Positions 13,969-64,000 of a stretch of 64,000 bases of DNA are shown in pieces. Each line of letters opens with the position of its first letter. Position 1 is the first letter of the stretch. Source of the stretch: a virus. The position numbers and the translations under genes were made by a program. Below the pieces are notes generated by a model that saw only the letters and a list, made by a program, of their open reading frames with translations, made no database searches and was not told the DNA's origin. The DNA lies in the IMG/VR virus record IMGVR_UViG_3300009164_000039. One strand, 5' to 3'.

Positions 13969-14847
13969 CTATTCTTCGTAACTGCCACCACCGCCACCAC
14001 TACCTTGTGCCTGGCGTGTGTAACTTGGGTTTAGGTTGTTCATTTGCAAAATGTCATCACGTAAGTTTTGATTGCGCTTTTCGATGTTTAGCACACGAGT
14101 AAAGCTGTTAGTGATAGCGGCAGTATAATACGCAAAAGGATTCTGCGATTTTGACTCGTCAAATTGCAATCCAATTTGGCTGAGTTGTAACAAGGCTTGG
14201 CTTCGCATTTCGTCATTGTAGGTGTATCCTCTCCAGTTTGATCTTGTGGCATAACGTTCACACAGTTTCATAAACATCAGTGCCAACTTTTTGGTCATTG
14301 CACCGTGGTCACGACAATATGCACCTGTGTCTGGATCGCCTTTCCAGTGACTGATGCCTGCACACACAAGTTCGCCTTCTTCGTTTAGCTTGTAGTGCTT
14401 GAATGGAGGAAAGTTTACTTTCACATACTTTGCGGCAAGCGGCACACGTACAACAGGTTCATCGTACTCAGTGTCAGCATCTTCTGCTTCATCTAGCAAG
14501 TCCTGCGCATCCTGCTGTTTTTTAGTTTTAACTTCGTCGATAGGAACATGTTCCCATGTCATCACACGAAACACAACATCTGTATCAGCCACGTCCTTGA
14601 GCTTTACTTCAAATTCGTCCAGCTTGTGTTTGGTACCATCTGCTGTTGCAACATCTAGTGCGGCTTTGGCAAGACGTACTGCACGGTCTTTGCGGGCCTG
14701 TAACGTGTTCTTTTTGTTAATCTGCTTGATGTCAGGCAAGATCATGTCAAAATCTGCATCTGCGGGAGTAGTAAACCAACAGTAGGTTGATTTGCTTTTG
14801 TGTATCTCCTTCAGGATGTCTTTGTTATTAAGGTAGTTGTGTTTCAT
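13969..14847 (-). CDS. gp55: Late-transcription sigma factor, T4 gp55-like (292 aa)
   Basis: HNYLNNKDILKEI N-terminus and RSNWRGYTYNDEM...FDESKSQNPFAYYT...F..V..IEKRNQ. The gp55-gp47-gp46 order is as in T4-like phages. Confidence 0.88.
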   Translation of the reverse strand: MKHNYLNNKDILKEIHKSKSTYCWFTTPADADFDMILPDIKQINKKNTLQARKDRAVRLAKAALDVATADGTKHKLDEFEVKLKDVADTDVVFRVMTWEHVPIDEVKTKKQQDAQDLLDEAEDADTEYDEPVVRVPLAAKYVKVNFPPFKHYKLNEEGELVCAGISHWKGDPDTGAYCRDHGAMTKKLALMFMKLCERYATRSNWRGYTYNDEMRSQALLQLSQIGLQFDESKSQNPFAYYTAAITNSFTRVLNIEKRNQNLRDDILQMNNLNPSYTRQAQGSGGGGGSYEE

Positions 14848-46885: not shown

Positions 46886-46888
46886 CAC

Positions 46889-48220: not shown

Positions 48221-48249
48221 ATCATAATAATATGCTTTTTAATATGCCC

Positions 48250-48290
48250 ATAAATAACTGTAACCCATGTGCTGAACAAGCAAATAAATA
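48250..48290 (+). promoter_or_regulatory. Two ATAAATA late-promoter motifs upstream of fibre 2
   Basis: ATAAATA at 48250-48256 and 48284-48290 in the AT-rich intergenic gap; GGAGT SD before ATG 48315. Confidence 0.55.
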
Positions 48291-48314
48291 CTAGATAAAA
48301 TCGGAGTCTAAGGA

Positions 48315-50783
48315 ATGAGCTATAATTTAACAAGAACTGACGGGACGCCACTGTTGACCCTGGCCGATGGTCAGACCAACACAACAACGACCAGTCTTAC
48401 GCTGATCGGCAAGAACTATGCCGGATATGGCACATTCTTAAACGAAAACTTCGTGAAACTGCTGGAGCATTTTAGCAGTGTCACTGCACCAGACAATCCT
48501 AGTGTGGGACAACTATGGTGGCAGAGTTCAACCAAGATACTTAAGGTATATATTGGTAACAACTCATGGAAAAGTATCACTGGTGCCCAAGCTGAAGCAA
48601 GTTCTCCGACTTATAAAGTAACAGGCGATCTATGGTGGGACACCACAAATCAACAGTTGAAAGTTTGGTCAGGCGCCAGCTGGATCACAATTGGTCCTAG
48701 CTTTACACAAACAACAGGTACATCAGGTGCTGTGGCAGATACCATCGTTGACGATGCCTTGGTCACACACGTGGTAGTTAAATTCTTTGTTAACAATGGC
48801 TTGGTAGCCATGATGAGCAAGGACAGTACATTTACTCCGGGTAACGCTATTCCTGGATTCAGCACAGTCAAACCAGGTATGAACTTGGCCACAGGAACTG
48901 TGCCAGGGTTGAAATATTGGACCACAGCAGAAAATGCTGACTACTTGGGTAACGTGGCAGCAGCCAATTACTTGCGTAGTGATGTGTCGGTTCCACTCAC
49001 AACCCAATTAGAAATTCGTAACCTAAACGGTATCGCAATTGAAGAACCAAACGGTACAATTGACTTTACACTGGGTGTGGCTAGTAACTATGTTAACATG
49101 ATCAGCTTGGTTCGTGGCAATGGTATGAAACTTACTACCAAGCCAGACAACGCTGCCGGCGCCACAATTGACGCACTCACTGTTGATCGCAACAGCGGAT
49201 TGATTCGTGTGTACAACGATCCACAAGATGCACTGGGCATTGCCACAAAGAACTATGTGGATTCTGGTTTGACCACAGTATTATCGGGCACCAATGCCAA
49301 CCTTGTTATTTTAGGAAGTCAGCTGGCATCTAACGTGGCAGCAATCAACAGCAACGTTGGTGATATTCGACTGTTAAAATCCACTGGTACTGTGAGCACA
49401 CCAAACGGTAACGTAGTTGCTAACATTGTGTCATTGAGTGCAAACGTAGGTCCATTCAGTGGAGTTATTGCCAACCAAGGCAGCATCACAGCCAACATCA
49501 AGGCACTAGCAGGCAACATTGGTTGGACTGGCTTGCTGTCAAGTGATGACCTAACAGTGACTGGCAACATTGCCAAGTTTGCAGCCAACGTAGGTGCAAT
49601 GACATTTATTGCGCACCAAGCAGACATTACTTCCAACATCAAATCTATTGCCGGCAATATTGGGTGGACTGGATTATTATCTAGTGACGATCTAACAGTG
49701 ACCGGTAACATTGCCAAGTTTGCAGCCAATGTGGGTGCAATGAGCCGTATTGCCAACCAAGGCAGCATCACAGCCAACATTCAGGCACTAGCAGGTAATA
49801 TTGGTTGGACTGGTAAATTATCCAGTGATGATCTAACAGTTACCGGTAACATTGCCAAGTTTGCTGCCAATGTGGGTCCACTCAACTTGGTTGGCCTACA
49901 AAGCGTCACCGCCAACGTCAATGCACTGTGGGGCAACGTTATCCCTGCAGGTGGTACACCAGGCGGACAAACATTGTCGGCCAACATCACTGCAATCTGG
50001 GGCAACATTGGATCAGTTCCAACAGCCGGTGTAGCTAATTCAGTGTTTGGTGGACAAACCATCACTGCCAACGTCAATGCCATCTGGGGCAACATCGTAT
50101 CCTTGGTCACCACAGCTGGATCTATTTCTGGCAACACAGATTCTGTGTTACGTTCGGGCACACGATCAATGACAGGTAACTTGGTACCAGACGCCGACGG
50201 TACTCGAGCATTGGGCGCACTGGCCACACGTTTTGACTTGCTTGGTGATACTTTTGACTTCACAGGAACAGGACAATTCCATTCCAGTATCACTACCAAA
50301 GCAGGTATCAACATGGGCAACACCAGTGTTAATGGACGCATGGGAACAATCTATGCAACAACGTTTAACGGAACTGCTACCACAGCACAATACGCTGACT
50401 TGGCAGAACGTTTTGAATCAGACTCAGCTTATCCACCGGGCACAGTTGTGATGCTGGGCGGTGTGGCTGAAATCACAGCAGCCATGGATGACGCCAGTGA
50501 TGAAGTGTTTGGGGTTATCAGCACTAGACCTGCGCACTTGATGAACAACCAAGACGGTTACACAGACCAAACACATCCGCCAGTGGCCATGACAGGTCGT
50601 GTGCCAGTTCGTGTGACAGGCACAGTGAAAAAAGGTGATCGATTGATCAGTGCAGGCAACGGTGTTGCACGTGCTGCCAAATCAGGCGAGTACACTGCAT
50701 TTAACACAATTGGTCGTTCACTAGAAAATAAAACTACAACAGACGAAGGCGTTGTAGAAGCAACAGTAAAGTTGAATAGTTAA
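48315..50783 (+). CDS. Tail fibre protein 2 with C-terminal intramolecular-chaperone-like domain (822 aa)
   Basis: Same N-terminal module as fibre 1 (GKNYAGYG.FLNENFVKLLE), internal 47-aa repeats and C-terminal AQYADLAERF...GTVV.LGG..EIT...GRVPVRV.G...KGD.L. Confidence 0.82.
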   Translation: MSYNLTRTDGTPLLTLADGQTNTTTTSLTLIGKNYAGYGTFLNENFVKLLEHFSSVTAPDNPSVGQLWWQSSTKILKVYIGNNSWKSITGAQAEASSPTYKVTGDLWWDTTNQQLKVWSGASWITIGPSFTQTTGTSGAVADTIVDDALVTHVVVKFFVNNGLVAMMSKDSTFTPGNAIPGFSTVKPGMNLATGTVPGLKYWTTAENADYLGNVAAANYLRSDVSVPLTTQLEIRNLNGIAIEEPNGTIDFTLGVASNYVNMISLVRGNGMKLTTKPDNAAGATIDALTVDRNSGLIRVYNDPQDALGIATKNYVDSGLTTVLSGTNANLVILGSQLASNVAAINSNVGDIRLLKSTGTVSTPNGNVVANIVSLSANVGPFSGVIANQGSITANIKALAGNIGWTGLLSSDDLTVTGNIAKFAANVGAMTFIAHQADITSNIKSIAGNIGWTGLLSSDDLTVTGNIAKFAANVGAMSRIANQGSITANIQALAGNIGWTGKLSSDDLTVTGNIAKFAANVGPLNLVGLQSVTANVNALWGNVIPAGGTPGGQTLSANITAIWGNIGSVPTAGVANSVFGGQTITANVNAIWGNIVSLVTTAGSISGNTDSVLRSGTRSMTGNLVPDADGTRALGALATRFDLLGDTFDFTGTGQFHSSITTKAGINMGNTSVNGRMGTIYATTFNGTATTAQYADLAERFESDSAYPPGTVVMLGGVAEITAAMDDASDEVFGVISTRPAHLMNNQDGYTDQTHPPVAMTGRVPVRVTGTVKKGDRLISAGNGVARAAKSGEYTAFNTIGRSLENKTTTDEGVVEATVKLNS
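49467..49889 (+). repeat. Coding tandem repeat, 3 x 141 nt (47 aa)
   Basis: Units start at 49467, 49608 and 49749: IANQGSITANIKALAGNIGWTGLLSSDDLTVTGNIAKFAANVG. Confidence 0.92.
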
Positions 50784-50784
50784 T

Positions 50785-52860
50785 ATGGCATACGCATCAG
50801 GCAGCTCAATCGAAGCAATTGATTACAATAACCTAGCATGGGGATCTGATGCTGGTGGCACCTATGTGACCACCAGCACTAATAAAAACATTGCAGTTGT
50901 TTGGGGTGTAGGTACTGGACGATTTGGTTGGGGACAAAACACAAGCTCTATACCCAAAGCAATAATTAATGCAATCACTACTGCAACCGCGTGTACCGGT
51001 TCCACAATCACTGTTGGGGACTCTACCACAATTGGTGTGAATGAAGCAATTAAATTTGGCAGTGCTATTGGGGGGCTAACTGCCGGCGCAACATACTATG
51101 TGTATGACAAGCCAACCACCAATACCTTACGAGTTGCTGCCACAGTTAATGCAACTGCGCCAATTGATCTAACCACACAAAGCAGTTTATCAGTCACAGT
51201 TCTGCCAGTTGATTTTGCCACAGGCAGTCTCACACAAGTTGCAGCCACTAATAATGTAACAGCCGCTCAATGGAACGGTCTCATACTGGCAACAAACAAA
51301 GCATTATATCACACAGGTGGTGCAAACGTTGCAGTGACTGGTGTGTCGGTTGGCACACCAATTGCCTATTACAGTGCTGTATCTACTGCGGTAACCACAG
51401 TGTGGAACAATGCCAACACTGGTTCGGTAGGATTCACCACAGACGATGCGGCCTTGACATCAACCAACACCGTTACCTGGGCCAACAGCATTGGGTTCGT
51501 ATACACTGTGGATTTTGGCAGTGCCGACGAAATGCGGTATTTTTTCAATGCTGGCGGGAAAATAAAATTCAGCCTCACTGGGCCTGCAGGCACAGGACGC
51601 AATCTAGATTGGCGAACACTTTGTACTGCAATGGGTACCATAGTATTTGGATACAACACCACTACCAAATCTGGTGGGTCAGGTACTCCAGATACTCTAC
51701 TAAGCACAGTAGGCAACGGTGGCTTCTGGGGACCTCATACATCAGGAGTGGACCGAGAAGATTTCCAACAGACTTCCACAGGCACTGCATACACAACCAA
51801 TTACATTGAAATTCTTACTAAAGTGTCTGGTGTCACTGCTGGCAGCAGTGGCGGTAAAGGTACTAGATTGACTTTTACTATTAATCTGGTAGATGCTAAT
51901 AGCAACATCTATCAACCTGCGGTGGCAACAGGCACAGTGGCCAGCATGGTGGTTGTTAGACCAACATCAAGTGCAGTGAGTGTGACAGGCCCCAGTGGCA
52001 CTGGCGTGACCAAGACCACAGACGCCGGTACTACCACAGCGTATGCGATTCCAACCGGAAGCCAAACGTTTACCACAGTCGGGGATACCACTTTTACTGT
52101 ACCTGCCGATGTAACATCAGTTAGTGCTTTTGTTGTTGCGCCTGGAGGATTTGCAGGTGCCACCGCAGGTGGTGGCGGTGGCGGCTCAGCTTACATAGGA
52201 ACGGTCACAGTGACTCCGGGCCAAACTCTCTATGTCAGAGTAGGAGATAAAAATGCATCAGGTGCCAGCACTGCGTCGTTGTCTATAGTGTCAACTACTA
52301 CACCAATTGACAGTTCACTTAATTATCTAGTTGCAACTGCTGGTGCAAGCACCGGCACCGGTAATGGTGGCTCTGGCGCAGGTGTTGGTGCGTTTGCCGC
52401 AGGTGTTGGTGCAAATGCTGGGCAAGGTGGGCAGAATCCTCTTGGTGGAGGAGGTGGCGCAGCGGGCTATGGTGGCACTGCTGGTAATGGTGGCTATCCA
52501 TATGTAAGCGGAAACCAACAACTGCAAGGCGCTTATATCTATGGTGCTCAAGGTGGCGGCACCGGTGCTGGTGGTGGTGGCGGTGGTGTACTCTCTGCGT
52601 CAGCGGCTGGAGGTGGTGGTGGTGTGGGACTTAATGGAATTGGTACACCTGGTAGCAGTGGTGGCGGCACAAGTACACCGACCACTCAAACTGCTGGAAC
52701 GCCCGGCGGCGGCGGATCTGGTGGTGCCAGTGGTAGTGTTAAAAATGGTGGAGACTTTGGTGGTGGTGGCGGCGGAACGGCTATCAGCGGCACACCTGGT
52801 GGCGGCGCCGTTAGAATAATCTGGGGGCCAAGCCGAAGTTACCCGAGCCAGGCAGCATAA
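50785..52860 (+). CDS. Fibre-associated protein with glycine-rich C-terminal domain (691 aa)
   Basis: Thr/Gly-rich; F.S.DEMRYFFNAGG motif; FTVPADVTSVSAFVVAPGG...GGGGGG and terminal GGGAVRIIWG. Confidence 0.75.
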   Translation: MAYASGSSIEAIDYNNLAWGSDAGGTYVTTSTNKNIAVVWGVGTGRFGWGQNTSSIPKAIINAITTATACTGSTITVGDSTTIGVNEAIKFGSAIGGLTAGATYYVYDKPTTNTLRVAATVNATAPIDLTTQSSLSVTVLPVDFATGSLTQVAATNNVTAAQWNGLILATNKALYHTGGANVAVTGVSVGTPIAYYSAVSTAVTTVWNNANTGSVGFTTDDAALTSTNTVTWANSIGFVYTVDFGSADEMRYFFNAGGKIKFSLTGPAGTGRNLDWRTLCTAMGTIVFGYNTTTKSGGSGTPDTLLSTVGNGGFWGPHTSGVDREDFQQTSTGTAYTTNYIEILTKVSGVTAGSSGGKGTRLTFTINLVDANSNIYQPAVATGTVASMVVVRPTSSAVSVTGPSGTGVTKTTDAGTTTAYAIPTGSQTFTTVGDTTFTVPADVTSVSAFVVAPGGFAGATAGGGGGGSAYIGTVTVTPGQTLYVRVGDKNASGASTASLSIVSTTTPIDSSLNYLVATAGASTGTGNGGSGAGVGAFAAGVGANAGQGGQNPLGGGGGAAGYGGTAGNGGYPYVSGNQQLQGAYIYGAQGGGTGAGGGGGGVLSASAAGGGGGVGLNGIGTPGSSGGGTSTPTTQTAGTPGGGGSGGASGSVKNGGDFGGGGGGTAISGTPGGGAVRIIWGPSRSYPSQAA

Positions 52861-52869
52861 GGAACATGT

Positions 52870-53199
52870 ATGAAATTTGATATTACATTTATTAATCCGG
52901 TAGGTAATCCAGAAACATACGTTGCTATTGAGGCTGAAAACGAACAAGCGGCTCGAGAAATGAAAGACAGCTTGTTGACAGCAGCCGGATCATTTTGGCC
53001 AGTTGATCAATGGACCATTGCATCAGTGGGACCCACACCAACTGAAACTCCGCCTGCTGATCCAACTCTGATGCCAATGTATTACCCAACAACTGAGCCA
53101 GTTCTAACTCTTGAGCAAATGATGGCCAAGCTGACTGCAGATTCACAAAAGGCCGCGGCAGCCCAACTTGCCGCACAACAAGCAAACCCACCAACTTGA
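52870..53199 (+). CDS. Hypothetical protein (109 aa)
   Basis: AGGA SD upstream; co-oriented; no recognised motif. Confidence 0.7.
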   Translation: MKFDITFINPVGNPETYVAIEAENEQAAREMKDSLLTAAGSFWPVDQWTIASVGPTPTETPPADPTLMPMYYPTTEPVLTLEQMMAKLTADSQKAAAAQLAAQQANPPT

Positions 53200-53231
53200 C
53201 ATAGTTTTAAGATAGGGCACACTACTCTATC

Positions 53232-53238
53232 TTAAATA
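53232..53238 (+). promoter_or_regulatory. Putative late promoter TTAAATA heading the glycosyltransferase/radical SAM operon
   Basis: TAAATA followed 4 nt later by ATG 53243; lies in the 3' arm of a 12-bp hairpin (53206-53236). Confidence 0.55.
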
Positions 53239-53242
53239 CTGT

Positions 53243-53563
53243 ATGGATGTCAATAAACTAAAAATTCAAGCTGATCAGGCATTTGATCGAGACACTGCAC
53301 GACTAGCACTAAAAGAAAAGATTGATGCACGACTGTGTGTGGCCATCAATGGCGGACTGTTTCGAGCCACGCCCGAACTCATTGCATTCCTCAGCACCTG
53401 GCCAATAGAAACTGTTTATCTCCAAGACATACACGATCAGCCCATTGAACTAGATCGTGTGCTTGCGCTGGCCCAGCTGAGCCAAGCATATCAATATGCC
53501 ATGAACTCCTGGCACGAAGAACACACTCAACAGCAAAAAATCAGGAAAGGTCGTCATGCGTGA
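53243..53563 (+). CDS. Hypothetical protein (106 aa)
   Basis: First ORF of the overlapping operon; overlaps the next gene by 8 nt. Confidence 0.75.
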   Translation: MDVNKLKIQADQAFDRDTARLALKEKIDARLCVAINGGLFRATPELIAFLSTWPIETVYLQDIHDQPIELDRVLALAQLSQAYQYAMNSWHEEHTQQQKIRKGRHA

Positions 53564-54356
53564 TGGTGCTCTTGTATTTGCTCATGCCACCGCAGTAGAC
53601 TATCTGCAAATGGCTCAGGTTGCGGCTCGACTAGTACGCAGGCATTTGAACATGCCTGTGTGCCTGGTAACAGATGGTGATGTTGAGTCCACAGCATTTG
53701 ATCAAGTTGTGCATGTACCAAAACCCTTAGCAATGAATCAACGCAACTACTGGGTCAACGGTGTCAAAAAAACAGCACCCTGGTACAACAGTACCAGATC
53801 AATGGCGCTGGATCTGTCACCATGGGATCGCACACTGTTGATTGATGCAGATTACTTTGTGATGTCTGACCAATTGAAACTGCTACAAAAAACAAATCTA
53901 GGTTTTGTGTGTTATACAAATGCACATGACATTCGCGACAACAAACCAATTGATGTCAGTTGTGGCTATCGGCACATGGCCTGGGCCACAGTGTGTTGGT
54001 TTGATAGATCAGAGCATTCGCAAGGTGTGTTTGCCATGTGGAAGCACGTGGTAAAAAATTGGGCCTACTATAATCTTGCCAATGACTTTGGCAAACCGGG
54101 CTTGCGTAACGACCATGCGTTAACTATTGCATTAGAAACAATGAGCGGACATTCTGCCACGTATCCAACCATACCAGGATCAATGGCCACAGTTGTACCC
54201 GGTACACAACTGTATGATATTAGAGCAGATGGCACAGTGTTATTCAAAACACATGATAAATTTTCATTAATCAAAAATCAAGACTTGCACATGGTAGACA
54301 AACAGATTGCATGCGACTCGCAATGGTTAGAATTGTTAGAGGCAGTTCATGCGTGA
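53556..54356 (+). CDS. Glycosyltransferase-like protein (GT-A fold, DxD) (266 aa)
   Basis: DLSPWDRTLLIDADY (DxD), WATVCWF and RNDHAL.IA resemble nucleotide-diphospho-sugar transferases. Confidence 0.65.
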   Translation: MRDGALVFAHATAVDYLQMAQVAARLVRRHLNMPVCLVTDGDVESTAFDQVVHVPKPLAMNQRNYWVNGVKKTAPWYNSTRSMALDLSPWDRTLLIDADYFVMSDQLKLLQKTNLGFVCYTNAHDIRDNKPIDVSCGYRHMAWATVCWFDRSEHSQGVFAMWKHVVKNWAYYNLANDFGKPGLRNDHALTIALETMSGHSATYPTIPGSMATVVPGTQLYDIRADGTVLFKTHDKFSLIKNQDLHMVDKQIACDSQWLELLEAVHA

Positions 54357-55221
54357 GTTTGCAGGAGAGCAAGGCTACTTGACATTTGCACAAAACACTG
54401 ACACAGTTGACTATCTACGACTGGCATACGCACAAGCATTGAGTATCAAATGCACACAGAAGATCAACAGTTATGCAGTGATAGTTGATGCATACACAGC
54501 TGAACAAATACAACACTGCCATAGGAAAGTGTTTGACTACATCATAGTACTAGAGCAAGATGATGCCAAAGAACATGACTGGAAGCTGGCAAACGAATGG
54601 CAAGCATTTGATCTTACACCATTTAGAGAAACGGTCAAACTAGAATCCGACATATTGTTTACCAGGAACATTGACCATTGGTGGACAGGCATGCGATCAC
54701 AAGAAGTCACATTCACTACCTGCATACGCAACTATCGCGGCCAAGTAAGCAACAGTAGAGAATATAGAAGATTGTTTGATGAAAGCAATTTACCTGATAT
54801 CTATACCGGCATGTTTTATTTTAGACACAGTCAAACAGCACGTGATCTATTTAATGCAGCCGCCACAGTGTACCAGCAATGGCCCATGTTTAGGGACAGT
54901 GTGTTAACTAGATGCAATAGCAAACACGCCTCAACAGACGAAGCCTTTGCAGTAGCCGCCAAATTAATCGGTGTAGAACGTGTGACTAATCCTGCACTTG
55001 ATTATCCAAGTTTTGTGCATATGAAAGGTGCAGTCAATGGGTTGGGCGCAAATGACAAGTGGAATGAATTGTTGTTTCATCAATGGACAGATGAAATGGA
55101 TCTAAGCATTGAGTTTCTTCGCCAACAGTATCCAGTACACTATTATCAAAAAGATTTTGTCACAGATAAAACAATAGGTGCATATGAACAAAGATTATCC
55201 AAACTTAATAACAGCGTTTGA
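54349..55221 (+). CDS. Glycosyltransferase-like protein, paralog of 53556..54356 (290 aa)
   Basis: DLTPFRETVKLESDILF aligns with the neighbour's DLSPWDRTLLIDADYF; also LPDIYTGMFYF, STDEAFAVA and FVHMK. Confidence 0.6.
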   Translation: MREFAGEQGYLTFAQNTDTVDYLRLAYAQALSIKCTQKINSYAVIVDAYTAEQIQHCHRKVFDYIIVLEQDDAKEHDWKLANEWQAFDLTPFRETVKLESDILFTRNIDHWWTGMRSQEVTFTTCIRNYRGQVSNSREYRRLFDESNLPDIYTGMFYFRHSQTARDLFNAAATVYQQWPMFRDSVLTRCNSKHASTDEAFAVAAKLIGVERVTNPALDYPSFVHMKGAVNGLGANDKWNELLFHQWTDEMDLSIEFLRQQYPVHYYQKDFVTDKTIGAYEQRLSKLNNSV

Positions 55222-55531
55222 ATCCTCAACATGGCAACCACCGGTACCTGAATATCGGGTGTACTATGACAAGTCTGGAACCATAACAACCAAAACAACA
55301 GCACCATTGATAGGTGACTATATTGTGGTGTCTAGAGAAATGTATGACAGCATTGTGATGCACACACAGTGGCATGTGATAAATGGACAAGTTGAAATAA
55401 GACCGGTTGTGGAAATCCCACGTCATATGTTACAATACACAGCTGAAGGCCCGTACCGATCACTGCCAGGAAATGCTATATTTTTGGTAGATGACGATTA
55501 TGCTGGCTCCACTGATAATTGGACAATATGA
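55178..55531 (+). CDS. Hypothetical protein (117 aa)
   Basis: Co-oriented and overlaps both neighbours; YRVYYDKSG.I motif. Confidence 0.7.
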   Translation: MHMNKDYPNLITAFESSTWQPPVPEYRVYYDKSGTITTKTTAPLIGDYIVVSREMYDSIVMHTQWHVINGQVEIRPVVEIPRHMLQYTAEGPYRSLPGNAIFLVDDDYAGSTDNWTI

Positions 55532-56418
55532 AAACTGTAGACATTGCAGACCTAGATGTAATTTTTCTAACCTACGACGAACCTCGCAGAGAAGAGTCAT
55601 GGGCCAAAATCAAAAACATGGTACCTTGGGCCAAGCGTGTGGATGGCATAAAAGGCAGTGATGCCGCACACAAAGCCGCAGGTGCGGCCAGCGATACAGA
55701 TCGCTTTATACTAATTGACGGCGACAATATTCCTGACCCAGAGTTCTTTAACAAACAAATCACACTGGATCCACATCATGAAAGATGTGTGTTGCGTTGG
55801 AGAGCAAGAAACGCCATCAACGGACTCATGTACGGCAATGGTGGACTCAGCTCGTGGACCAAAAGTTTTGTAGAAAGCATGCGCACACACGAAGCCACTG
55901 ATGGTCGTAATGAAACACTGGTGGAGTTTTGCTTTGAACCTGACTACTGGGCCATGCATGACTGCTACTCAACCACGTATCCTAATGCCAGTCCATTTCA
56001 GGCCTGGCGAGCAGGCTTCCGTGAAGGTGTTAAAATGTGTCTGGATCGCGGAGCAAGACCCAACTTGGACGAGTTTGAAAAACGTGCCCACAATCGTAAT
56101 CTTGATCATTTGACCATTTGGCAAAGTGTGGGTGCTGATGCAGAGAATGGCTTCTGGGCCATATACGGTGCTAGACGTGGCACACAAATGACCATGCTTA
56201 CAGACTGGGATTACACCCAGGTACAAGACTTTGATGAACTGGCAAAACTTTGGACTGTGTACCAAAATGACGGCCCTGACGAATGCACTGAAGTAGGCAA
56301 CATGCTACGCAAACGCCTGGGACTTAACATTGTGGATCTAGACCCCGAACCCAGTGCATTTTTCAAACATCACTACAAGTCAAATTTTGTCAATAGAGGA
56401 ATAATGAGTCGTGAGTAA
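55528..56418 (+). CDS. Glycosyltransferase-like protein (GT2-like, DGD) (likely start ATG 55528)
   Basis: DVIFLTYDEP...VDGIKGSDAAH.AA...FILIDGDN, N.INGLMYGNGG and AWRAGFREGVKM; ATGA overlap with the previous stop. Confidence 0.7.
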   Translation: MKTVDIADLDVIFLTYDEPRREESWAKIKNMVPWAKRVDGIKGSDAAHKAAGAASDTDRFILIDGDNIPDPEFFNKQITLDPHHERCVLRWRARNAINGLMYGNGGLSSWTKSFVESMRTHEATDGRNETLVEFCFEPDYWAMHDCYSTTYPNASPFQAWRAGFREGVKMCLDRGARPNLDEFEKRAHNRNLDHLTIWQSVGADAENGFWAIYGARRGTQMTMLTDWDYTQVQDFDELAKLWTVYQNDGPDECTEVGNMLRKRLGLNIVDLDPEPSAFFKHHYKSNFVNRGIMSRE

Positions 56419-57793
56419 AAGTGATTTCATGACAGCCGCAGAACAAATGCGCCACACACTAGGCGAAGGTCTTTGCTTGGCCAAATGGAAACAGGTTAGC
56501 TTGCACTTGCCCACAGGATTGAACAATTCATGCTATCATCCTCCACTACACAAGATTCCTGTGGAACTGCTAGCAGGCAATCCTGGCGCACTGCACAATA
56601 CTCCACATAAAAAAGCTCAGCGCAAGATCATGTTGAAACATGAACGTCCAGACGAGTGTAGTTACTGCTGGTCAGCAGAAGACAATGGACAACTCAGTGA
56701 CAGGCACTACAGGTCAGGCGAGGAGTGGGCCGCAGAGGATCTTGACAAGATATTGGCCTCAACCGGAGACGAAGATGCATTACCTAGCTATGTGGAAGTT
56801 AATTTTAATCATGCTTGTAATCTTAAATGTAGCTATTGCAGTCCGCAATTTAGTTCAAGCTGGGCCGCTGAAGTTGCACAACATGGCGGATTCCCTACGT
56901 CCAGCCCTCACAATAGTCCTGAGTATTTTACTGGTAGTCGTCGCCCTATTCCTGCCCGAGAACACAACCCCTACGTTGATACCTTCTGGGAATGGTGGCC
57001 AGAGCTGTACCCCAAGCTAAGACATTTTAGAATGACAGGTGGTGAGCCACTGATGGATCACAATACCTATCGTGTGTTTGAATACGTGCTGACCTTGCCG
57101 CATCCATTGTTGCATTTGGATGTGACCAGCAACTTCAGTGTGGAGCCTGTGTTGTTTGAAAAGTATCTTGGCTATGTCAAACAGTTATGCAACACACAGA
57201 TTGAACACTTCATGCAGTATGTGAGCCTGGACACCTGGGGCAGTCAAGCAGAGTACATACGCAATGGCATGGACTTTGTGAGAGTGTGTGACTATGTGGA
57301 ACGCTATTTAGAGGAAGTACCCAATCGCAACAGCCTTACGTTTATCATGACCATGAACAATCTCAGTGTCACGGGCATGCATGACATGCTGGATTGGATA
57401 CTGGAACTACGTGCCAAGTACAGTAAAACATATCAGCGTGTGTGGTTTGACACACCGTTGCTGAGACAACCACGTTGGCAAAGCCTGCAGATACTGCCGC
57501 CTGCGTATGCCAACAGAATGAAAATAAACCTAGAGTTCATGCGAGCACACCTAATCACAGATGATAGTTTTGTGGGATTCAAAGATTATGAAATACAGCG
57601 CATGGAACGAGACATTGCCTGGATGACTGAGCCACAAGACGCACAAGAAGTCAATCATGCACGTGCTGACTTCTATAGATTCTTCAACGAACACGACCGT
57701 AGACGCGGTACTAACTTTTTACAAACATTTCCAGAGATGAGCCATTTCTGGTGGGAATGCAAACATCATGCCGAAACTGAACAACGAAACTGA
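56411..57793 (+). CDS. Radical SAM enzyme with N-terminal twitch-like Cys domain (460 aa)
   Basis: N-terminal CLAKW...SCYHP...CSYC; core CNLKCSYC; TGGEPL. Confidence 0.9.
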   Translation: MSKSDFMTAAEQMRHTLGEGLCLAKWKQVSLHLPTGLNNSCYHPPLHKIPVELLAGNPGALHNTPHKKAQRKIMLKHERPDECSYCWSAEDNGQLSDRHYRSGEEWAAEDLDKILASTGDEDALPSYVEVNFNHACNLKCSYCSPQFSSSWAAEVAQHGGFPTSSPHNSPEYFTGSRRPIPAREHNPYVDTFWEWWPELYPKLRHFRMTGGEPLMDHNTYRVFEYVLTLPHPLLHLDVTSNFSVEPVLFEKYLGYVKQLCNTQIEHFMQYVSLDTWGSQAEYIRNGMDFVRVCDYVERYLEEVPNRNSLTFIMTMNNLSVTGMHDMLDWILELRAKYSKTYQRVWFDTPLLRQPRWQSLQILPPAYANRMKINLEFMRAHLITDDSFVGFKDYEIQRMERDIAWMTEPQDAQEVNHARADFYRFFNEHDRRRGTNFLQTFPEMSHFWWECKHHAETEQRN

Positions 57794-59123
57794 TATAGAA
57801 TTCAAACGCAGAGTGATTGACATCAAGTCAACCAGCTTCTGCGGAGCCAAATGGTACAATGCTACCATATGGTTGGGTAGTGGACAAACAACCAGCTGCC
57901 ACCACCCACCTGCACACTCAATTGACTTGCAAGAAATAAAAACCAATCCTGCCGCACTGCACAATACCACTCGTAAAAAAGCTGATCGTGAAATGATGCA
58001 AAAAGGTGAACGCCCAGCAGGCTGTGAATACTGCTGGAAGATAGAAGACATGGGCCCTGAGTCTGTCAGTGACCGTGTGTACAAAACTGTAATACATTCC
58101 GAGGAGGACCTAAATGTTGCATTTGCCAGACCCAGCTACACAGACTTCAACCTTCGCACGTTGGAAATTGCGTTTGACAGAACTTGTCAGTTCGCTTGTT
58201 CTTATTGCAACCCTGCTTTTAGTAGCACATGGGTTAAGGACATTGGTAATAACGGGCCATACACAGGATTGGTATCTGACGGCAGGAACCATTTTACTCA
58301 CGCTCATGATAGTAGTCAACTGTATAAATTCAATGAAGTTAATCCGTACGTGGAAGCATTCTTCCAGTGGTGGGAAACAGATCTCCACCAGACACTAACA
58401 GAGCTTCGCATCACCGGAGGCGAGCCACTCATGTCAGGCTACACCTGGCAGCTGATTGACTGGTTCAAAGCCAATCAAGGCAAGAGCCATACCAAACTGG
58501 CCATCAACAGCAATCTTGGCATGGAGCCGGTCAAGATGCTGGATTTTATTCGGCGTGTGGAAGGTATTCCGCATCTGGAAATCTACACCAGCAACGAAGC
58601 ACTGGGCGCACAAGCAGAGTATATTCGTGACGGATTGAATTACCGGCAATGGCTCAGCAACATGGAGATGTTGATCAATTCAGGCGCAGTAAATCAAATG
58701 CATGTGATGTGTACAGTCAATGCATTGTGTCTGGAAAGCCTGCCTGAATTTTTAGATGAATTGGTTGTGTTGAAGAAAAAGTACAGCAGAGACTTTCCTA
58801 ACTTCACGTTGAACATCTTGCGTTTTCCTAGTTTTCAAAGTCCACTGGTATTACCATATGAGATTAGACAAAAGCATGCAGACCGCCTGGCACAGTTTTT
58901 GGTACGCCACAAAGGACAAAACTACTTGCATGAGCATGAGATAAACCACGTGGAACGTCTAGTAAAGTATTTGCTTGAAGTAGATACACCTCATGCAGAA
59001 GCATTTGAAATGCCTAAATTGTTGAATGACTTCCGACAGTTTTATATCCAATATGATCAGCGCCGCGGAAAAAACTTTGTAAATACATTCCCGGCTCTCA
59101 AGGATTGGTATGAAACACTCTAA
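57768..59123 (+). CDS. Radical SAM enzyme with N-terminal twitch-like Cys domain (451 aa)
   Basis: CGAKW...SCHHP...CEYC; core CQFACSYC; TGGEPL. Confidence 0.9.
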   Translation: MPKLNNETDIEFKRRVIDIKSTSFCGAKWYNATIWLGSGQTTSCHHPPAHSIDLQEIKTNPAALHNTTRKKADREMMQKGERPAGCEYCWKIEDMGPESVSDRVYKTVIHSEEDLNVAFARPSYTDFNLRTLEIAFDRTCQFACSYCNPAFSSTWVKDIGNNGPYTGLVSDGRNHFTHAHDSSQLYKFNEVNPYVEAFFQWWETDLHQTLTELRITGGEPLMSGYTWQLIDWFKANQGKSHTKLAINSNLGMEPVKMLDFIRRVEGIPHLEIYTSNEALGAQAEYIRDGLNYRQWLSNMEMLINSGAVNQMHVMCTVNALCLESLPEFLDELVVLKKKYSRDFPNFTLNILRFPSFQSPLVLPYEIRQKHADRLAQFLVRHKGQNYLHEHEINHVERLVKYLLEVDTPHAEAFEMPKLLNDFRQFYIQYDQRRGKNFVNTFPALKDWYETL

Positions 59124-60324
59124 GACATTTTGCATATTGCCATGGATACATCTTCATGCATTCCCTGATGGCCGTGCGTATCCTTGTTGTATGGGAGAAT
59201 ATCACTCACCCATTGGCGATCTTAAAACACACACAATGGAGCAGGTGTGGAATCAAGCGCCACTAGCTACCATGCGAAAGAACATGCTACAGAATGTCAA
59301 GTCCAAAGAGTGTGTCAAATGCTATGAGCTAGAAGAAAATGGTTTTGTCGGCATGCGACAAAGCATGAACCGTGCGTTTGCACATCACATGCCATTGGCA
59401 GATCAAACACTTCCTGATGGCACACTGCCTGACTTTCGACTACGCTACTATGACATTAGATTTAGTAATCTGTGTAATTTCCGTTGCCGCAGTTGTGGCA
59501 GTGTGTTTTCCAGCAACTGGTATGATGACGAAGTTGCCGCACATGGTCAAGTACAGCATCCCAAGATCATGTTTGCTGGCCAACACAAACAAGACATGTG
59601 GGAGCAAATGCAACCGCATATACCACATCTAGAACAAGTGTACTTTGCAGGCGGCGAACCCTTGATCATGGAAGAACATTATCGTGTGCTAAAAGAACTA
59701 GTACAGAGAGAAATGTTTGATGTCAGACTGGTATACAACACCAACTTTAGTGAATTAGATTTCAAAGATGAAAGTGTACTGGAGTTATGGAAACTGTTTA
59801 AGAATGTCAGCGTTGGTGCTAGTCTAGACGCCAGCGGCACACGAGCAGAGTACATTCGCAAAGGCACAGTATGGCACAAGATTGTACACAATAGAGAACG
59901 CATGTTGTCTGTGTGCCCTCAAGTTGACTTCTATATAAGTAGTACCGTGGGCATACTAAATGTATGGCACTTGCCAGACTTTCATCGTGAATGGGTTGAC
60001 TTGGGATTGATACGCCCGCAAGATTTCAACATCAACATGTTACAATCACCTGAATGGCAACGTGCAAATCATCTGTCACCGGAGTTGAAACAACAAGTGA
60101 AAGAACGCATACACAATCACCTTGAGTGGCTTGGTCCATTGGATCACATGAATCGTGCAACCAATGGTTATCGGAGTATTATAAAGTTTATTGATCAACC
60201 TGCTGATGCAGATCAACTAAAAGAGTTTTTTAGAGAAACTGATCAATTTGATCAAATACGCAATGAGAGTTTTGATGCTACCTTTCCTGAACTGACTGGA
60301 TTGAGAGACCATGCTACCAAATAA
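59110..60324 (+). CDS. Radical SAM enzyme with N-terminal twitch-like Cys domain (404 aa)
   Basis: CILPW...PCC...CVKC; core CNFRCRSC; AGGEPL. Confidence 0.9.
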   Translation: MKHSKTFCILPWIHLHAFPDGRAYPCCMGEYHSPIGDLKTHTMEQVWNQAPLATMRKNMLQNVKSKECVKCYELEENGFVGMRQSMNRAFAHHMPLADQTLPDGTLPDFRLRYYDIRFSNLCNFRCRSCGSVFSSNWYDDEVAAHGQVQHPKIMFAGQHKQDMWEQMQPHIPHLEQVYFAGGEPLIMEEHYRVLKELVQREMFDVRLVYNTNFSELDFKDESVLELWKLFKNVSVGASLDASGTRAEYIRKGTVWHKIVHNRERMLSVCPQVDFYISSTVGILNVWHLPDFHREWVDLGLIRPQDFNINMLQSPEWQRANHLSPELKQQVKERIHNHLEWLGPLDHMNRATNGYRSIIKFIDQPADADQLKEFFRETDQFDQIRNESFDATFPELTGLRDHATK

Positions 60325-61525
60325 CAATATATGTGTGCTACCGTGGATGAGCATAGAAGTAACCCCAATGGGTAACAGTCGCCCGTGTTGTTTGGCCATT
60401 GATGAAATACCAGACAACACTGGTAAATCCTACGACCTTACCGCAGTGCCTATTCGTGAAGTATATCACAGCAAATACATGCAGGATCTAAGGCAACAGT
60501 TTCGTGCAGGAGAAAAACCCAGCACATGCACACGATGCTGGACAGAAGAATCTGCAGGACGTACCAGCAAACGTATGAACATGTTGGCCAAATTCAACAA
60601 TGATATCCAATCAATTGAATGGGACACAGACACCCCTGAACAATTATGGTTCTTGGATCTTAAACTAGGCAACATCTGTAATCTCAAATGTCGTATCTGT
60701 GGATCCTGGAGCAGTAGTAAATGGGCACAAGAAGAACTAGACTACTACCCAACAGCCACTAGAGAAGAACGCAAAAAACATTCAGCGTATGTATGGCTAC
60801 GTCAGGGTCAGTGGCCACGTGAAAGCATTGACTTTTGGAACAACATTGATCAAGTGCTGCCTGGTGTGCGCTACTATGAATTTACCGGTGGCGAACCATT
60901 CTTGATTCAAGAACATTTTGATTTGTTACAACGCACAGTAGATCAAGGCTATGCATATCTTGTGGATGTACACTACAACACCAATGGCACACAGTATCCA
61001 GAAGCCGCAGTGGAGATGTGGAAAAAGTTCAAGCATGTGAACATTGCATTCAGCATTGACGATCTTGGCGCACGATTTGAATATCAGCGTTATGGCGCCA
61101 ACTGGGCAGAAGTGGAACAAAATCTAGACCGTTACTTAGAGTTAAGCAAAACACACACCAACATCACGCTACAAATGTGTATAACTGCAAATATACAAAA
61201 CGTATTGTACTTGCCTGAAGTCATGGACCATGTGTGGGCAAAAGGTTTTCGTGACGTATACATCAACATGTTACATGATCCAATTCAACTCAACATCAAG
61301 CAAATGACTCCAGTGGCGATTGAACTGGTATGTAACAGACTAAATCAAGTTCCGACCAGCAACAGATTCTATCGTGATTTCCAACAGTTAATAACGGTGA
61401 TACAAACAGGTACTGGTAGTGATGGTCAAGAGTTTTGCAAAACTATCAAACAAGGTGACGTGTATCGCAAACAAAATTTTGCTGACCATCACCCAGACAT
61501 AGCAAAGGCCATGGGATATGAATAA
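60311..61525 (+). CDS. Radical SAM enzyme with N-terminal twitch-like Cys domain (404 aa)
   Basis: CVLPW...PCC...CTRC; core CNLKCRIC; TGGEPF. Confidence 0.9.
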   Translation: MLPNNNICVLPWMSIEVTPMGNSRPCCLAIDEIPDNTGKSYDLTAVPIREVYHSKYMQDLRQQFRAGEKPSTCTRCWTEESAGRTSKRMNMLAKFNNDIQSIEWDTDTPEQLWFLDLKLGNICNLKCRICGSWSSSKWAQEELDYYPTATREERKKHSAYVWLRQGQWPRESIDFWNNIDQVLPGVRYYEFTGGEPFLIQEHFDLLQRTVDQGYAYLVDVHYNTNGTQYPEAAVEMWKKFKHVNIAFSIDDLGARFEYQRYGANWAEVEQNLDRYLELSKTHTNITLQMCITANIQNVLYLPEVMDHVWAKGFRDVYINMLHDPIQLNIKQMTPVAIELVCNRLNQVPTSNRFYRDFQQLITVIQTGTGSDGQEFCKTIKQGDVYRKQNFADHHPDIAKAMGYE

Positions 61526-62675
61526 AGTTATCCCGTTGGTTAATGTTAGTGCATTGCAAGCCCTGACGCCCGCACCTCTTGGTCGCGCAGAGGTTGACTC
61601 TGACTACATGACACGGTATATACAAACTGGAATGGATTTTAACAAGGATCTTGGACTAGCAGGCAAATATTGTTATCACCCATTTAACACAGTCACGATA
61701 GACCATCGAGGTCGTTGCTATGTATGCACCTGTCAGGCATGGTTACCAATCAGCGTAGGTAACATTTTAGATTTTAATTCGCTGAGTGAAATTGTTCACA
61801 GCTCACGTGCTAGAGAGATACAACGAAGTATCGTAGATGGCAGTTATCGTTACTGTGACAATAAAACTTGCGGGTTATTAATCAGCGACGCAATGGAAAC
61901 TAGAATTGAGCACAAACCAGACACTGTGAATTGGATCAATTTCTGTATCGATGACAGTTGCAACTTACAGTGTCCTAGCTGTCGCACAGATTTAATATTT
62001 CATAAACAAGGTCCAGAATTTGATCTACGTATGAAAATATCACAGCATGTGAGCAAGCTGATCAGCGAACACAATCATTTTTTACGATTTACACTAAGCA
62101 ACGATGGGGATCCATTTGCTAGTCATGTGTACAGAAACCTAATGACAACTATTGCGCCACAACTGGTCAATCAGCTGGAGATTGAAATAGTAACTAACGG
62201 CATATTAATGAAGTCACATTGGCACGAAATTGAAAACATATACCCTAACCTCACACTAATCAAAGTCAGTTTTGATGCTGCCACCGAACAAACATACAAC
62301 AAAACACGATGCGGCGGCAGTTGGAACAAAGTAACTGAAAGCACTAGATTTGTAGCTGATTGGCTGGCTCAACGCAAAGCACAGCATCTCAATGCATATA
62401 CTAGATTGGTAGCTAATTTTGTAGTGCAACAAACAAACTATCATGAGATGATTGACTTTGTAACACTGTGCAATTCGTTGGGTGTTGATCAGATCTTGTT
62501 TCAAAAAGTAACTAACTGGAATACGTGGATTGATGCCAACGGCACAGATCAGTACAGCGCACATGCAGTATGGCAACAGTCGCATCCTGAATATCACAAG
62601 CTGAAAGAAATACTAAAAGATCCTGTGTTTCAACAGCACAATGTTAAACTAACTAACCTAGCGGATCTACTATGA
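61518..62675 (+). CDS. Radical SAM enzyme, divergent N-terminal Cys domain (385 aa)
   Basis: CYHPF...CYVCTC...YCDNKTC; core CNLQCPSC; NDGDPF in place of GGEP. Confidence 0.85.
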   Translation: MNKVIPLVNVSALQALTPAPLGRAEVDSDYMTRYIQTGMDFNKDLGLAGKYCYHPFNTVTIDHRGRCYVCTCQAWLPISVGNILDFNSLSEIVHSSRAREIQRSIVDGSYRYCDNKTCGLLISDAMETRIEHKPDTVNWINFCIDDSCNLQCPSCRTDLIFHKQGPEFDLRMKISQHVSKLISEHNHFLRFTLSNDGDPFASHVYRNLMTTIAPQLVNQLEIEIVTNGILMKSHWHEIENIYPNLTLIKVSFDAATEQTYNKTRCGGSWNKVTESTRFVADWLAQRKAQHLNAYTRLVANFVVQQTNYHEMIDFVTLCNSLGVDQILFQKVTNWNTWIDANGTDQYSAHAVWQQSHPEYHKLKEILKDPVFQQHNVKLTNLADLL

Positions 62676-63961
62676 ACAAACCTGATTCGTTATGCTTGGC
62701 TCCTTGGACACACACATATCTTAGTCCGCAGACTGAGCGCCGCATGTGTTGTGCAAGTCGCGAGCCTGCACAAAACTTTCAACAGTATATTGACACCAGC
62801 GCCGGTTCTGGCAAGTATATACCTATCACTCTGGACGAACATTGGAACGGTGACCACATGCGCTCCGTACGAAAACGCATGCTGTCCGGCGAAACATTAC
62901 CCGAGTGCGAAGTATGTAATGATAAACTGTTGAATACCTCTGTGTATAGAGATTACTTCACGCACTTGTTTGCACACAAACTTGACCAAGTACATGCCAG
63001 TACAGATGACACCGGGCACACTACAATGCAACCGATCAGCTGGGACTATAGATTTAGTAATCTTTGTAATTTCAAATGTCGCATGTGTGGAGACATGTTG
63101 AGCAGTGCATGGGAAAGCGAGCAACGTGTACATGGCATGATAGATTGGAACAATCCAAAGAACAACTGGATGAAGCCAGTCATACGCGATGAAATACATC
63201 AGTTTCAAACCACGCAGGTTGAACATGAGTTCAGTCAGGCAGTTGAAGAACATCGTGTTGAGGAGATATATTGGGTGGGTGGCGAACCCTTGATGTACGA
63301 ACAACATTGGAAGTACATGAAAAGAATAATTGAATTAGGGGACGGACCAAATGTCTATGCAAGATATAATACAAATCTCAGCCGTGTTGATTATCGCGGT
63401 GTCAATCTTTATCGGGATATTTTATCTGGGTTACGGGATTGGCAAATCTGCGCATCGCTCGACGGAACAGGTAAAATTGGTGAGTACATTAGATCAGGTC
63501 TCGACTTCGATGCTTGGCTTGAGAACTTCGCTCAAGGAGTTGCGATTGCGACTAATCCTAGACAGATGCGAATCGACTACACCCTTACCCTGCCAGGAAT
63601 GTTTGAGGTTGAACGGATTGAACGACTGTCCGCAACCTACGGAGTACAAGTTCTGGCGAAGGTAGTTTTTAGTTTCAGTCCGGACATAGTTATGTCACCT
63701 TTAGCCCTACCTCGGGACATGTTACACTCTTGGGTAGATGAAATACTTTCTGTGGTGAAGACCGACTCGTTAAAGGATATCTTGGTTCAGCTGAAAACTA
63801 GACCTACGTTTGCGGAACAGTGGCCCGACCAATATCAAACAGCACTGCGCCGTGGTAAAGACCGTGTGTTGAAATTAGAAAGCATACGAGACAATCCTAT
63901 CACAATGGCAGAGATATTGAGTGAACGATCGGATGTATTGCACTGGTGGAATAACATATGA
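62672..63961 (+). CDS. Radical SAM enzyme with N-terminal twitch-like Cys domain (429 aa)
   Basis: CLAPW...MCC...CEVC; core CNFKCRMC; VGGEPL. Confidence 0.9.
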   Translation: MNKPDSLCLAPWTHTYLSPQTERRMCCASREPAQNFQQYIDTSAGSGKYIPITLDEHWNGDHMRSVRKRMLSGETLPECEVCNDKLLNTSVYRDYFTHLFAHKLDQVHASTDDTGHTTMQPISWDYRFSNLCNFKCRMCGDMLSSAWESEQRVHGMIDWNNPKNNWMKPVIRDEIHQFQTTQVEHEFSQAVEEHRVEEIYWVGGEPLMYEQHWKYMKRIIELGDGPNVYARYNTNLSRVDYRGVNLYRDILSGLRDWQICASLDGTGKIGEYIRSGLDFDAWLENFAQGVAIATNPRQMRIDYTLTLPGMFEVERIERLSATYGVQVLAKVVFSFSPDIVMSPLALPRDMLHSWVDEILSVVKTDSLKDILVQLKTRPTFAEQWPDQYQTALRRGKDRVLKLESIRDNPITMAEILSERSDVLHWWNNI

Positions 63962-64000
63962 TATTATTAAGTTCTGGCGATAGCTTTACATATGGCAACG
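63958..64000 (+). CDS. Start of a probable SGNH/GDSL-like hydrolase (truncated by window edge)
   Basis: ATGA overlap with the previous stop; translates MILLSSGDSFTYGN, matching SGNH block I (GDS.T.G). Only 14 codons are visible. Confidence 0.55.
   Translation, partial: MILLSSGDSFTYGN

Follow-up and report, generated by a model that had tools for sequence, protein, structure and literature searches.

Directly behind the tail-fibre genes of an uncultured T4-like jumbo myophage, we find a row of genes that we propose to be a pathway for building and tailoring a sugar or glycan. The row occupies positions 53243-64000 (plus strand) of the window, the whole 64,000-nt stretch of DNA analysed here, which comes from IMG/VR record IMGVR_UViG_3300009164_000039. 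It consists of eleven complete co-directional open reading frames (ORFs) and the start of a twelfth: two small proteins (O1, O4), three glycosyltransferase (GT)-like proteins (O2, O3, O5), six radical S-adenosylmethionine (SAM) enzymes (R1-R6) and an SGNH-like ORF (ORF12). Genes of this island past base 64000 are known from its relatives. Because three GT-A transferases occur together with an aminotransferase, a kinase, a carbamoyltransferase, an SGNH protein and radical SAM enzymes, we put the probability that the island is a phage sugar/glycan building and tailoring pathway, whatever its acceptor, at about 0.75. That the acceptor is the proteins of the virion is possible, at somewhat less than even odds. 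An earlier note, made from the letters of the window, had described twelve consecutive ORFs, each overlapping the next by 4-44 nt, immediately behind Ser/Thr/Gly-rich fibre genes; the ORF coordinates bear out the first point, and PHROG and domain matches together with protein composition bear out the second. From O1 to ORF12 the successive overlaps are 8, 8, 44, 4, 8, 26, 14, 14, 8, 4 and 4 nt, and no opposite-strand feature breaks the row. Since all junctions from O1-O2 onward overlap, translational coupling is suggested.

The six radical SAM genes counted in the earlier note are confirmed, five as members of the N-terminal-twitch family and R5 as a divergent cousin. R1-R4 and R6 score 287-404 bits against NCBIfam NF033640 (N_Twi_rSAM), for which the curated cut-off is 170 bits over the whole protein; R5 reaches 28.9 bits and hence lies outside the family. 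Like the rest of NF033640, R1-R4 and R6 have an auxiliary cysteine domain ahead of the CxxxCxxC core. This core motif (C122/C126/C129) and the N-terminal cysteines C8, C26 and C71 are invariant in all six proteins; R5 keeps CxxxCxxC without GGEP, and Pfam SPASM matches the N-termini of R3, R4, R5 and R6. Each paralogue has its own orthologue in relatives, with identities of 61-72% for R1 and 69-84% for R6, the best-conserved gene of the island. Homologues of R5 occur at few loci (28-54% identity), and by this pattern R5 is predicted to be an accessory gene. What distinguishes the island from other NF033640 proteins is that five old paralogues stand as a fixed array within a sugar locus. Most SPASM/twitch enzymes modify peptides or proteins, and R3-R5 have weak NCBIfam matches to sactipeptide and ranthipeptide maturases. 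Given also that the radical SAM genes are adjacent to fibre genes, the six enzymes might act directly on fibre or other virion proteins through thioether or C-C cross-links or epimerisation, with the GTs as a separate matter. We regard such direct protein maturation as very unlikely: no RiPP (ribosomally synthesised and post-translationally modified peptide) recognition element, leader-peptide-like gene or PqqD-like domain was found, the 0-2 cysteines per fibre protein (0 in F1 and F3, 1-2 in F2 and F4) argue against thioether chemistry, and the radical SAM genes are embedded among, and translationally coupled to, sugar enzymes.

Among solved structures, the N-terminal domain of R3 matches just the twitch domain of BtrN, with which R3 profile residues 5-72 align weakly (E 0.009); the match is marginal, and the twitch domain is C-terminal in BtrN and N-terminal in the island enzymes. 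BtrN, the butirosin 2-deoxy-scyllo-inosamine dehydrogenase (PDB 4M7T), and DesII are both radical SAM editors of sugars or sugar nucleotides. A single-sequence search with R3 for bacterial contexts returned nothing; a profile of R3 orthologues found 18 loci. Its close matches (50-55% identity; L166-L171, L173) are short contigs in metagenome-assembled genome (MAG) bins of many phyla. The bins with R3 orthologues are Legionellales, Verrucomicrobia TMED56, Flavobacterium, Betaproteobacteria TMED41, Polynucleobacter, Rickettsiales and Porticoccaceae, and these short contigs are probably mis-binned phage DNA. Among truly bacterial N-twitch copies, one in Cytophagales is solitary. In a second example, a Bdellovibrionales MAG (L178, 229-kb contig, 1904-9197) has three N-twitch genes next to genes for an amidohydrolase and a B12-binding radical SAM protein, a cluster that may be the cellular counterpart of the phage array.

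For the three GT-like genes, a GT-A fold had been set beforehand as the finding on which the claim would stand or fall. That fold was recovered for O2 and O5, and O3 follows by homology to O2. We folded O2 and O5 with AlphaFold2 (AF2) and compared the models with solved structures by Foldseek and VIA. The O2 model (predicted local distance difference test score, pLDDT, 93) finds GlyE/glycogenin in Foldseek (E 2e-6) and in VIA superposes on glycogenin over its full length (Z 16.3, root-mean-square deviation 3.3, 198 residues) and on LgtC at Z 14.5. The top structural matches of O2, namely glycogenin, the Skp1 galactosyltransferase, GlyE of serine-rich-repeat adhesins and UGGT, are protein-directed GT8 enzymes. 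The profile of O3 aligns with that of O2 (hhalign 99.5%, E 4e-23) and reaches glycogenin-1 by sequence (E 1.5e-3), the only such sequence link to GT8 for either protein; neither matches PF01501 (Glyco_transf_8) in Pfam at E 0.01. Compared with the GT8 enzymes glycogenin, GlyE, Skp1 alpha-galactosyltransferase and LgtC, O2 keeps the DxD metal motif (invariant D97 and D99, DAD), whereas O3 has the variant ExD (invariant E99 and D101), and identities are 11-13%. We therefore describe O2 and O3 as GT8-like in predicted fold and do not file them as CAZy GT8 members.

O5 has no detectable profile kinship with O2 (hhalign 4%). Its AF2 model (pLDDT 94.9) has a GT-A domain at residues 3-157, in which D64-x-D66 is kept in at least 90% of sequences. 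Foldseek ranks the PBCV-1 capsid glycosyltransferase A64R first and RmlT, TarP/TarS and SunS next, and in VIA the N-domain scores Z 8-9.6 over ~140 residues to B4GALNT1, SunS/ThuS, SpsA and PBCV-1 A64R; a search of BFVD returned viral glycosyltransferases. Nucleotidyltransferases of the same superfold (IspD, MobA) give similar scores, and we read O5 as a transferase rather than a nucleotidyltransferase because of its DxD motif and its GT-B fusions. In relatives of ~715-810 amino acids (aa) (P0165, P0167, P0205, P0224 and others like them), the O5-type domain forms the C-terminal half behind an N-terminal half that is a GT-B of the GT1/GT28 type, and other relatives have tandem O5-type domains (P0121, 876 aa). 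Pfam PF00535 does not match O5, and one two-domain relative reaches a sub-threshold 19.5 bits. By sequence, O5 is the best-conserved GT of the island.

Synteny across related phages, which the earlier note had named as a check, is extensive. The order F3-F4-O1-O2-O3-O4-O5-[variable insert]-R1-R2-R3-R4-(R5)-R6, where F3 and F4 are fibre genes and the variable inserts are more radical SAM and SGNH-like genes, is kept in ~80 IMG/VR loci. For O5 alone, clustering at 90% identity gives more than 8000 clusters, each at least 70% identical to O5 and on contigs of up to ~360 kb; a further count, at 50% identity, gives 1209 representatives. In the 64 loci with enough DNA downstream of R6, the conserved gene D1 (64/64) and a NodU/CmcH-type carbamoyltransferase (64/64) are always present. 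A DegT/PseC-like sugar aminotransferase (44/64) and a P-loop kinase with DUF2061 (41/64), the only membrane domain seen in the island, are common, and D2 and an SGNH/DUF6071-like gene occur in about two thirds of the loci (SGNH 41/64). Two further genes without an assigned family also lie downstream of R6 in relatives, and one near-complete relative has a DesII-like radical SAM gene (339 bits) at the distal end. For the conserved downstream proteins D1, X374 and X820, a PDB sequence search gave no match. Compared with near-complete relatives, the baseplate wedge protein is 44-56% identical, O5 ~67% and R6 70-80%, and so the island is under stronger constraint than the wedge, the one core structural gene compared.

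Among cultured phages, the core of the island is found in Ralstonia phage RsoM2USA only. There, ORF355-348 are in order a fibre-like gene, O1, O2, O3, ORF351 in the position of O4, O5, R1 and a second O5-like gene; ORF202 is an R2 orthologue with 51% identity. A megablast of the island against cultured phages returned nothing. All island homologues in RsoM2USA are annotated as hypothetical, and mass spectrometry of its virions covered just ten abundant bands (PMC8504454).

Enzymes of the DesII-like, DegT and NodU/CmcH types are typical of antibiotic sugar pathways, and solved twitch radical SAM enzymes, with BtrN as the weak best match, use small sugar-like substrates. The island could instead yield a phage "natural product", a free compound similar to an aminoglycoside, nucleoside or cofactor that stays unattached to any macromolecule and has the host or competitors as its target. 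The three-gene N-twitch locus of the Bdellovibrionales MAG resembles a metabolite cluster, and high enzyme conservation suits a fixed small substrate. We nevertheless consider a free small molecule rather unlikely, given that the island has three GTs whose relatives are protein- or glycan-directed, which points to transfer onto an acceptor, that no exporter or self-resistance gene was seen in the window or among the island genes of relatives, and that the fixed place behind the fibre genes would be left unexplained.

Based on these data, we propose that the row is the front half of a ~20-kb phage pathway in which a sugar or short glycan of an unusual kind would be made, transferred and decorated. 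A host nucleotide-sugar or the growing glycan would serve as substrate for the aminotransferase, the kinase and the radical SAM enzymes, which would convert it via hydrogen-atom abstraction. Candidate radical edits are oxidation, epimerisation, deoxygenation and C-C coupling, as performed on sugars by BtrN, DesII and AprD4. O2, O3 and O5 would attach the sugars to an acceptor, and the SGNH and carbamoyl enzymes would add O-acyl and O-carbamoyl groups. The likeliest acceptor would be the virion surface, in particular the Ser/Thr-rich fibres encoded directly upstream. The earlier note had virion proteins or packaged DNA decorated; that proposal rests on position, and the acceptor is one that we infer. 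We favour virion proteins because the linkage to fibre genes extends out to RsoM2USA, because the GT8 matches of O2 are protein-directed and because O5 matches a viral capsid enzyme. Taken as a whole, the scheme is tentative, and we would not bet on it at even odds: in aquatic jumbo phages of a very abundant clade, five to seven N-twitch enzymes, forming an old array specific to phages, would edit a sugar in successive radical steps, and three dedicated GT-A transferases would then attach it to tail fibres or other virion surface proteins.

When the island is expressed bears on its role. The earlier note had called it a late-promoter operon headed by a TAAATA motif like those before the structural genes. 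In the window the motif is indeed there, as it is before baseplate and fibre genes. All 8 copies of TAAATAC are on the plus strand, and chance would give 8.8 on both strands together. Seven of the eight lie at most 60 nt upstream of plus-strand ORF starts, although such windows make up ~2.5% of the sequence, so the placement is not due to chance even if the total is. Besides O1, the motif precedes the ORFs at 5123 and 14915, the baseplate genes at 22053 and 22489 and the fibre gene F3 at 48315. A gp55-type sigma factor reads the T4-type late promoter, a -10-type element, TATAAATA, that has no -35 box. In the window the motif takes the form (A/T)TAAATAC, and the full TATAAATA never occurs on the plus strand. 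Across the clade, TAAATA is the main upstream motif (15-fold enriched, 75 of 362 distinct leaders). It stands before F3 in 68/106 relatives, which agrees with a late-type signal read with gp55, and before O1 in only 5/53. A sigma-70-type -35/-10 promoter is found in 46 of 62 distinct O1 leaders, compared with 8.7% of shuffles and 11/62 F3 leaders; 39 of the 46 match at least 10 of 12 promoter positions (shuffles, 1.6%). In 28 of these 46 promoter-bearing leaders, 5-7 nt separate the end of the -10 box from the O1 ATG, implying a leaderless message, and with both promoter layouts a leaderless O1 mRNA is implied. Judged by the 60 nt ahead of O1 in relatives L003-L082, the class of promoter at the operon head switches within the clade, being mostly sigma-70-type, with TAAATA 4-5 nt before the ATG here and in a few others. 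Sigma-70-type promoters are the early class in T4-like phages. In the phage of the window, expression of the island may be late or may come from transcripts that read through from the fibre genes; for the clade as a whole the description as a late operon is not supported. The 53207-53235 hairpin ahead of O1 has no T-run, and the terminator scan called no plus-strand terminator; in many relatives, hairpins with a T-run lie just upstream of O1. R2 contains, inside its 3' end, a second TAAATAC that may act as an internal promoter; TAAATA precedes R3 in 0/64 leaders of relatives.

Expression from the start of infection, as suggested by the sigma-70-type head promoter of most relatives, would suit enzymes that build or alter a sugar on the lipopolysaccharide (LPS) core, O-antigen or capsule of the host, for example to block superinfection or to give the cell a different surface, in which case the virion would not be the target. 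Several matches point the same way: GT8 includes transferases of the LPS and lipooligosaccharide core, among them the LgtC on which O2 superposes; O5 has RmlT, TarP and TarS, which are wall teichoic acid enzymes, among its GT-A matches; and surface polysaccharides typically carry O-acyl and O-carbamoyl tailoring (NodU family, AlgX-like SGNH match). The latent period of RsoM2USA, 270 min (PMC8504454), also fits. Against such remodelling of the host envelope, the island shows no sign of a flippase, polymerase, lipid-carrier transferase or membrane-anchored GT, and host surface glycans vary greatly whereas the island enzymes are 65-80% identical across very diverged phages. Moreover, the seroconversion systems known to us belong to temperate phages and not to lytic T4-like ones. 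Overall we judge this explanation unlikely.

Early-type promoters would suit DNA-modifying enzymes equally, with the GTs and tailoring enzymes putting an elaborate sugar on a modified phage base and so evading restriction. Phage GTs that hypermodify DNA with diverse glycans have been described (Pyle et al. 2024, as cited in PMC12619734). In two near-complete relatives, a full-length thymidylate-synthase-family gene (~355-360 bits; ThyA or hydroxymethylase) lies 11-14 kb downstream of R6 (G002:C1:254452-255294 and G001:C1:63397-64302; L164, L165). Clusters for thymidine hypermodification reportedly contain radical SAM, P-loop kinase and pyridoxal-phosphate enzymes, as Lee et al. are said to have described in 2018. 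We think DNA hypermodification quite unlikely all the same. The thymidylate synthase/hydroxymethylase family is absent from 3 of the 5 island-bearing relatives that are at least 93% complete, and a Pfam match of the TGT/DpdA family is found in 0/5, with a model that may miss DpdA. No signature of a 5-hydroxymethyldeoxyuridine kinase or pyrophosphorylase was recognised, O2 best matches protein- or glycan-directed GT8 enzymes and not DNA glycosyltransferases, and the island sits in the structural block and not in the replication block.

Several observations weigh against a glycan pathway directed at the virion. The usual sigma-70-type head in relatives ill fits a purely late, assembly-coupled role, and the place next to fibre genes may be no more than a gene order passed down by inheritance. 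Conservation is higher in the enzymes than in the fibres, which fits a conserved small-molecule or nucleotide-sugar substrate and is silent on the final target. Both O5 and all N-twitch radical SAM genes are missing from XacN1, the sister phage of RsoM2USA, so virions of this type can be built without the island. In Vibrio phage K566, five or six N-twitch genes stand apart from the annotated structural genes, and O5 is missing. On the enzymes themselves, O2, O3 and O5 match no CAZy-type Pfam model, and we found no paper with an assayed member of the N-twitch family.

The N-twitch array of K566 (L002, 161548-168284) consists of four adjacent genes interleaved with unannotated genes of ~310-360 aa, in the vicinity of genes for a PagP-like protein and a nicotinamide phosphoribosyltransferase.

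Virus-encoded glycosylation is itself known. In mycobacteriophages (Freeman et al. 2023, Cell Host Microbe, as cited in PMC12619734), phage GT genes likewise lie beside structural genes, and there too virion proteins are proposed to end up with a glycan made by the phage. Those systems have one to a few GTs and no known set of radical SAM, carbamoyltransferase and SGNH genes, belong to actinobacterial siphoviruses and have had glycosylation shown experimentally. The island, by comparison, is a candidate system of ~20 kb with 5-7 radical SAM enzymes. In a second example, glycosylation of the capsid or fibrils of PBCV-1 and giant viruses also relies on a virus-encoded, host-independent pathway with GT-A enzymes (A64R, PDB 2P6W), and O5 superposes on the Mimivirus GT R699 (PDB 9DZS) at Z 8.0. 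Sugar aminotransferases belong to giant-virus sugar pathways too. These are eukaryotic viruses, however, and with ~10-15% sequence identity the fold alone is common; we know of no radical SAM enzymes in chlorovirus or giant-virus glycosylation pathways. To our knowledge, virus-encoded glycosylation comprises few systems (mycobacteriophages, chloroviruses, giant viruses and DNA glucosylation), none with radical SAM chemistry. We found no paper describing the island, the N-twitch family or islands of radical SAM and GT genes in jumbo phages. A T4-like marine genome with 12 radical SAM genes is mentioned in passing in PMC5332604, and a paper on "moraphages", another aquatic jumbo-phage lineage, describes four core GT groups and leaves radical SAM genes unmentioned (PMC12619734); no link between that lineage and the island clade could be made. 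What is new here is the fixed array of N-twitch radical SAM enzymes inside a probable glycan locus, and its abundance.

If the proposed scheme is true, the island would provide the first radical-SAM-dependent virion glycan and the first chemistry for NF033640. Knowledge of its product would assign this family a function, bring to light sugar chemistry of a new kind and tell whether large environmental phages use a self-made glycan to coat virions, DNA or hosts, a question that bears on host range, evasion of immunity or defence, and particle stability. The cultured pair of RsoM2USA, with the core, and XacN1, with none of it, offers a direct test system.

Table 1. Genes and sequence elements of the island and its surroundings, in window coordinates.
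Feature	Position	Strand	Description
O1	53243-53563	+	106 aa, conserved protein, first operon gene
O2	53556-54356	+	266 aa, predicted GT8-like (glycogenin-like) GT-A, D97-x-D99
O3	54349-55221	+	290 aa, O2 paralogue, predicted GT8-like, E99-S-D101 replaces DxD
O4	55178-55531	+	117 aa, GTG start, small fast-evolving protein
O5	55528-56418	+	296 aa from ATG (homologues 296 aa), GT-A N-domain and helical C-domain
R1	56411-57793	+	N-terminal-twitch radical SAM enzyme, NF033640 320 bits
R2	57768-59123	+	N-terminal-twitch radical SAM enzyme, NF033640 301 bits
R3	59110-60324	+	N-terminal-twitch radical SAM enzyme, NF033640 404 bits
R4	60311-61525	+	N-terminal-twitch radical SAM enzyme, NF033640 330 bits
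R5	61518-62675	+	divergent radical SAM enzyme, N-terminal SPASM/twitch-like domain (Pfam SPASM, residues 52-114)
R6	62672-63961	+	N-terminal-twitch radical SAM enzyme, NF033640 287 bits
ORF12 start	63958-64000	+	SGNH/GDSL-like, MILLSSGDSFTYGN, cut by window end
TAAATAC promoter-like motif	53233-53239	+	TAAATA at 53233-53238, 4 nt before O1 ATG; heptamer 3 nt before
Perfect 9-bp inverted repeat	53207-53235		TTAAGATAG, 11 nt, CTATCTTAA; between 109-aa ORF and O1; overlaps TAAATA by 3 nt
Second TAAATAC	59080-59086	+	inside R2 3' end, 23 nt before R3 ATG
Four tail-fibre-like genes and 109-aa ORF	44291-53199	+	upstream context
F1	44291-46885	+	matches many PHROG tail-fibre families
F2	46889-48220	+	Ig-like and Gly-rich domains
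F3	48315-50783	+	Peptidase_G2 intramolecular-chaperone domain
F4	50785-52860	+	tail-fibre-like
109-aa ORF	52870-53199	+	between F4 and O1
gp55-type late sigma factor gene	13969-14847	-	PHROG 12791, E 2e-78

The remaining genes of the row are small or truncated. None of O1-O5 belongs to a Pfam, NCBIfam or PHROG family, and O1 has no PDB match either. Orthologues of O1 at 25-50% identity are found in 65 loci and in RsoM2USA (ORF354). A protein-atlas lead (score 0.90) had suggested that O1 is a fibre-assembly-type protein with DUF4376; we rejected this identification, as 0/41 orthologues match PF14301 even at E 1 and the O1 profile has no PDB match. For O4, a counterpart ORF ending at the start of O5 is present in 69 distinct relatives, with the common motifs EYRxYY, VKNHAG and EYY, and we conclude that O4 is a real, fast-evolving gene whose position is conserved. 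In the case of ORF12, the earlier note had recognised an SGNH-like protein. The block I GDS motif (SSGDSFTYGN, residues 5-14) is indeed there, and the assignment is based on just the 14 residues that lie inside the window. The N-terminus of ORF12 is like that of a 212-aa gene in one relative (L083, MIYCIGDSFTYGEE), a gene with sub-threshold scores for Lipase_GDSL, Lipase_GDSL_2 and DUF6071. On the plus strand, R1 (56640-57020), R2 (58114-58398) and R6 (63351-63665) contain alternative-frame ORFs, which are 94-126 aa long.

Beyond the gp55-type sigma factor, the window encodes a gp46/47-like SbcCD, a gp5-like hub and a gp6-like baseplate wedge. By gp6, the closest cultured phages are Phosso, SCTP-2, Atu_ph07 and GAP32, at ~35% identity. 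The proteins F1-F4 contain 20-26% Ser+Thr, and Gly reaches 18-20% in F2 and F4. Lastly, a single 5715-aa ORF (26042-43189, plus strand) lies between the baseplate wedge gene and the fibre genes. In RsoM2USA the same position is occupied by ORF361, a 2541-aa "structural protein" detected in virions (PMC8504454).

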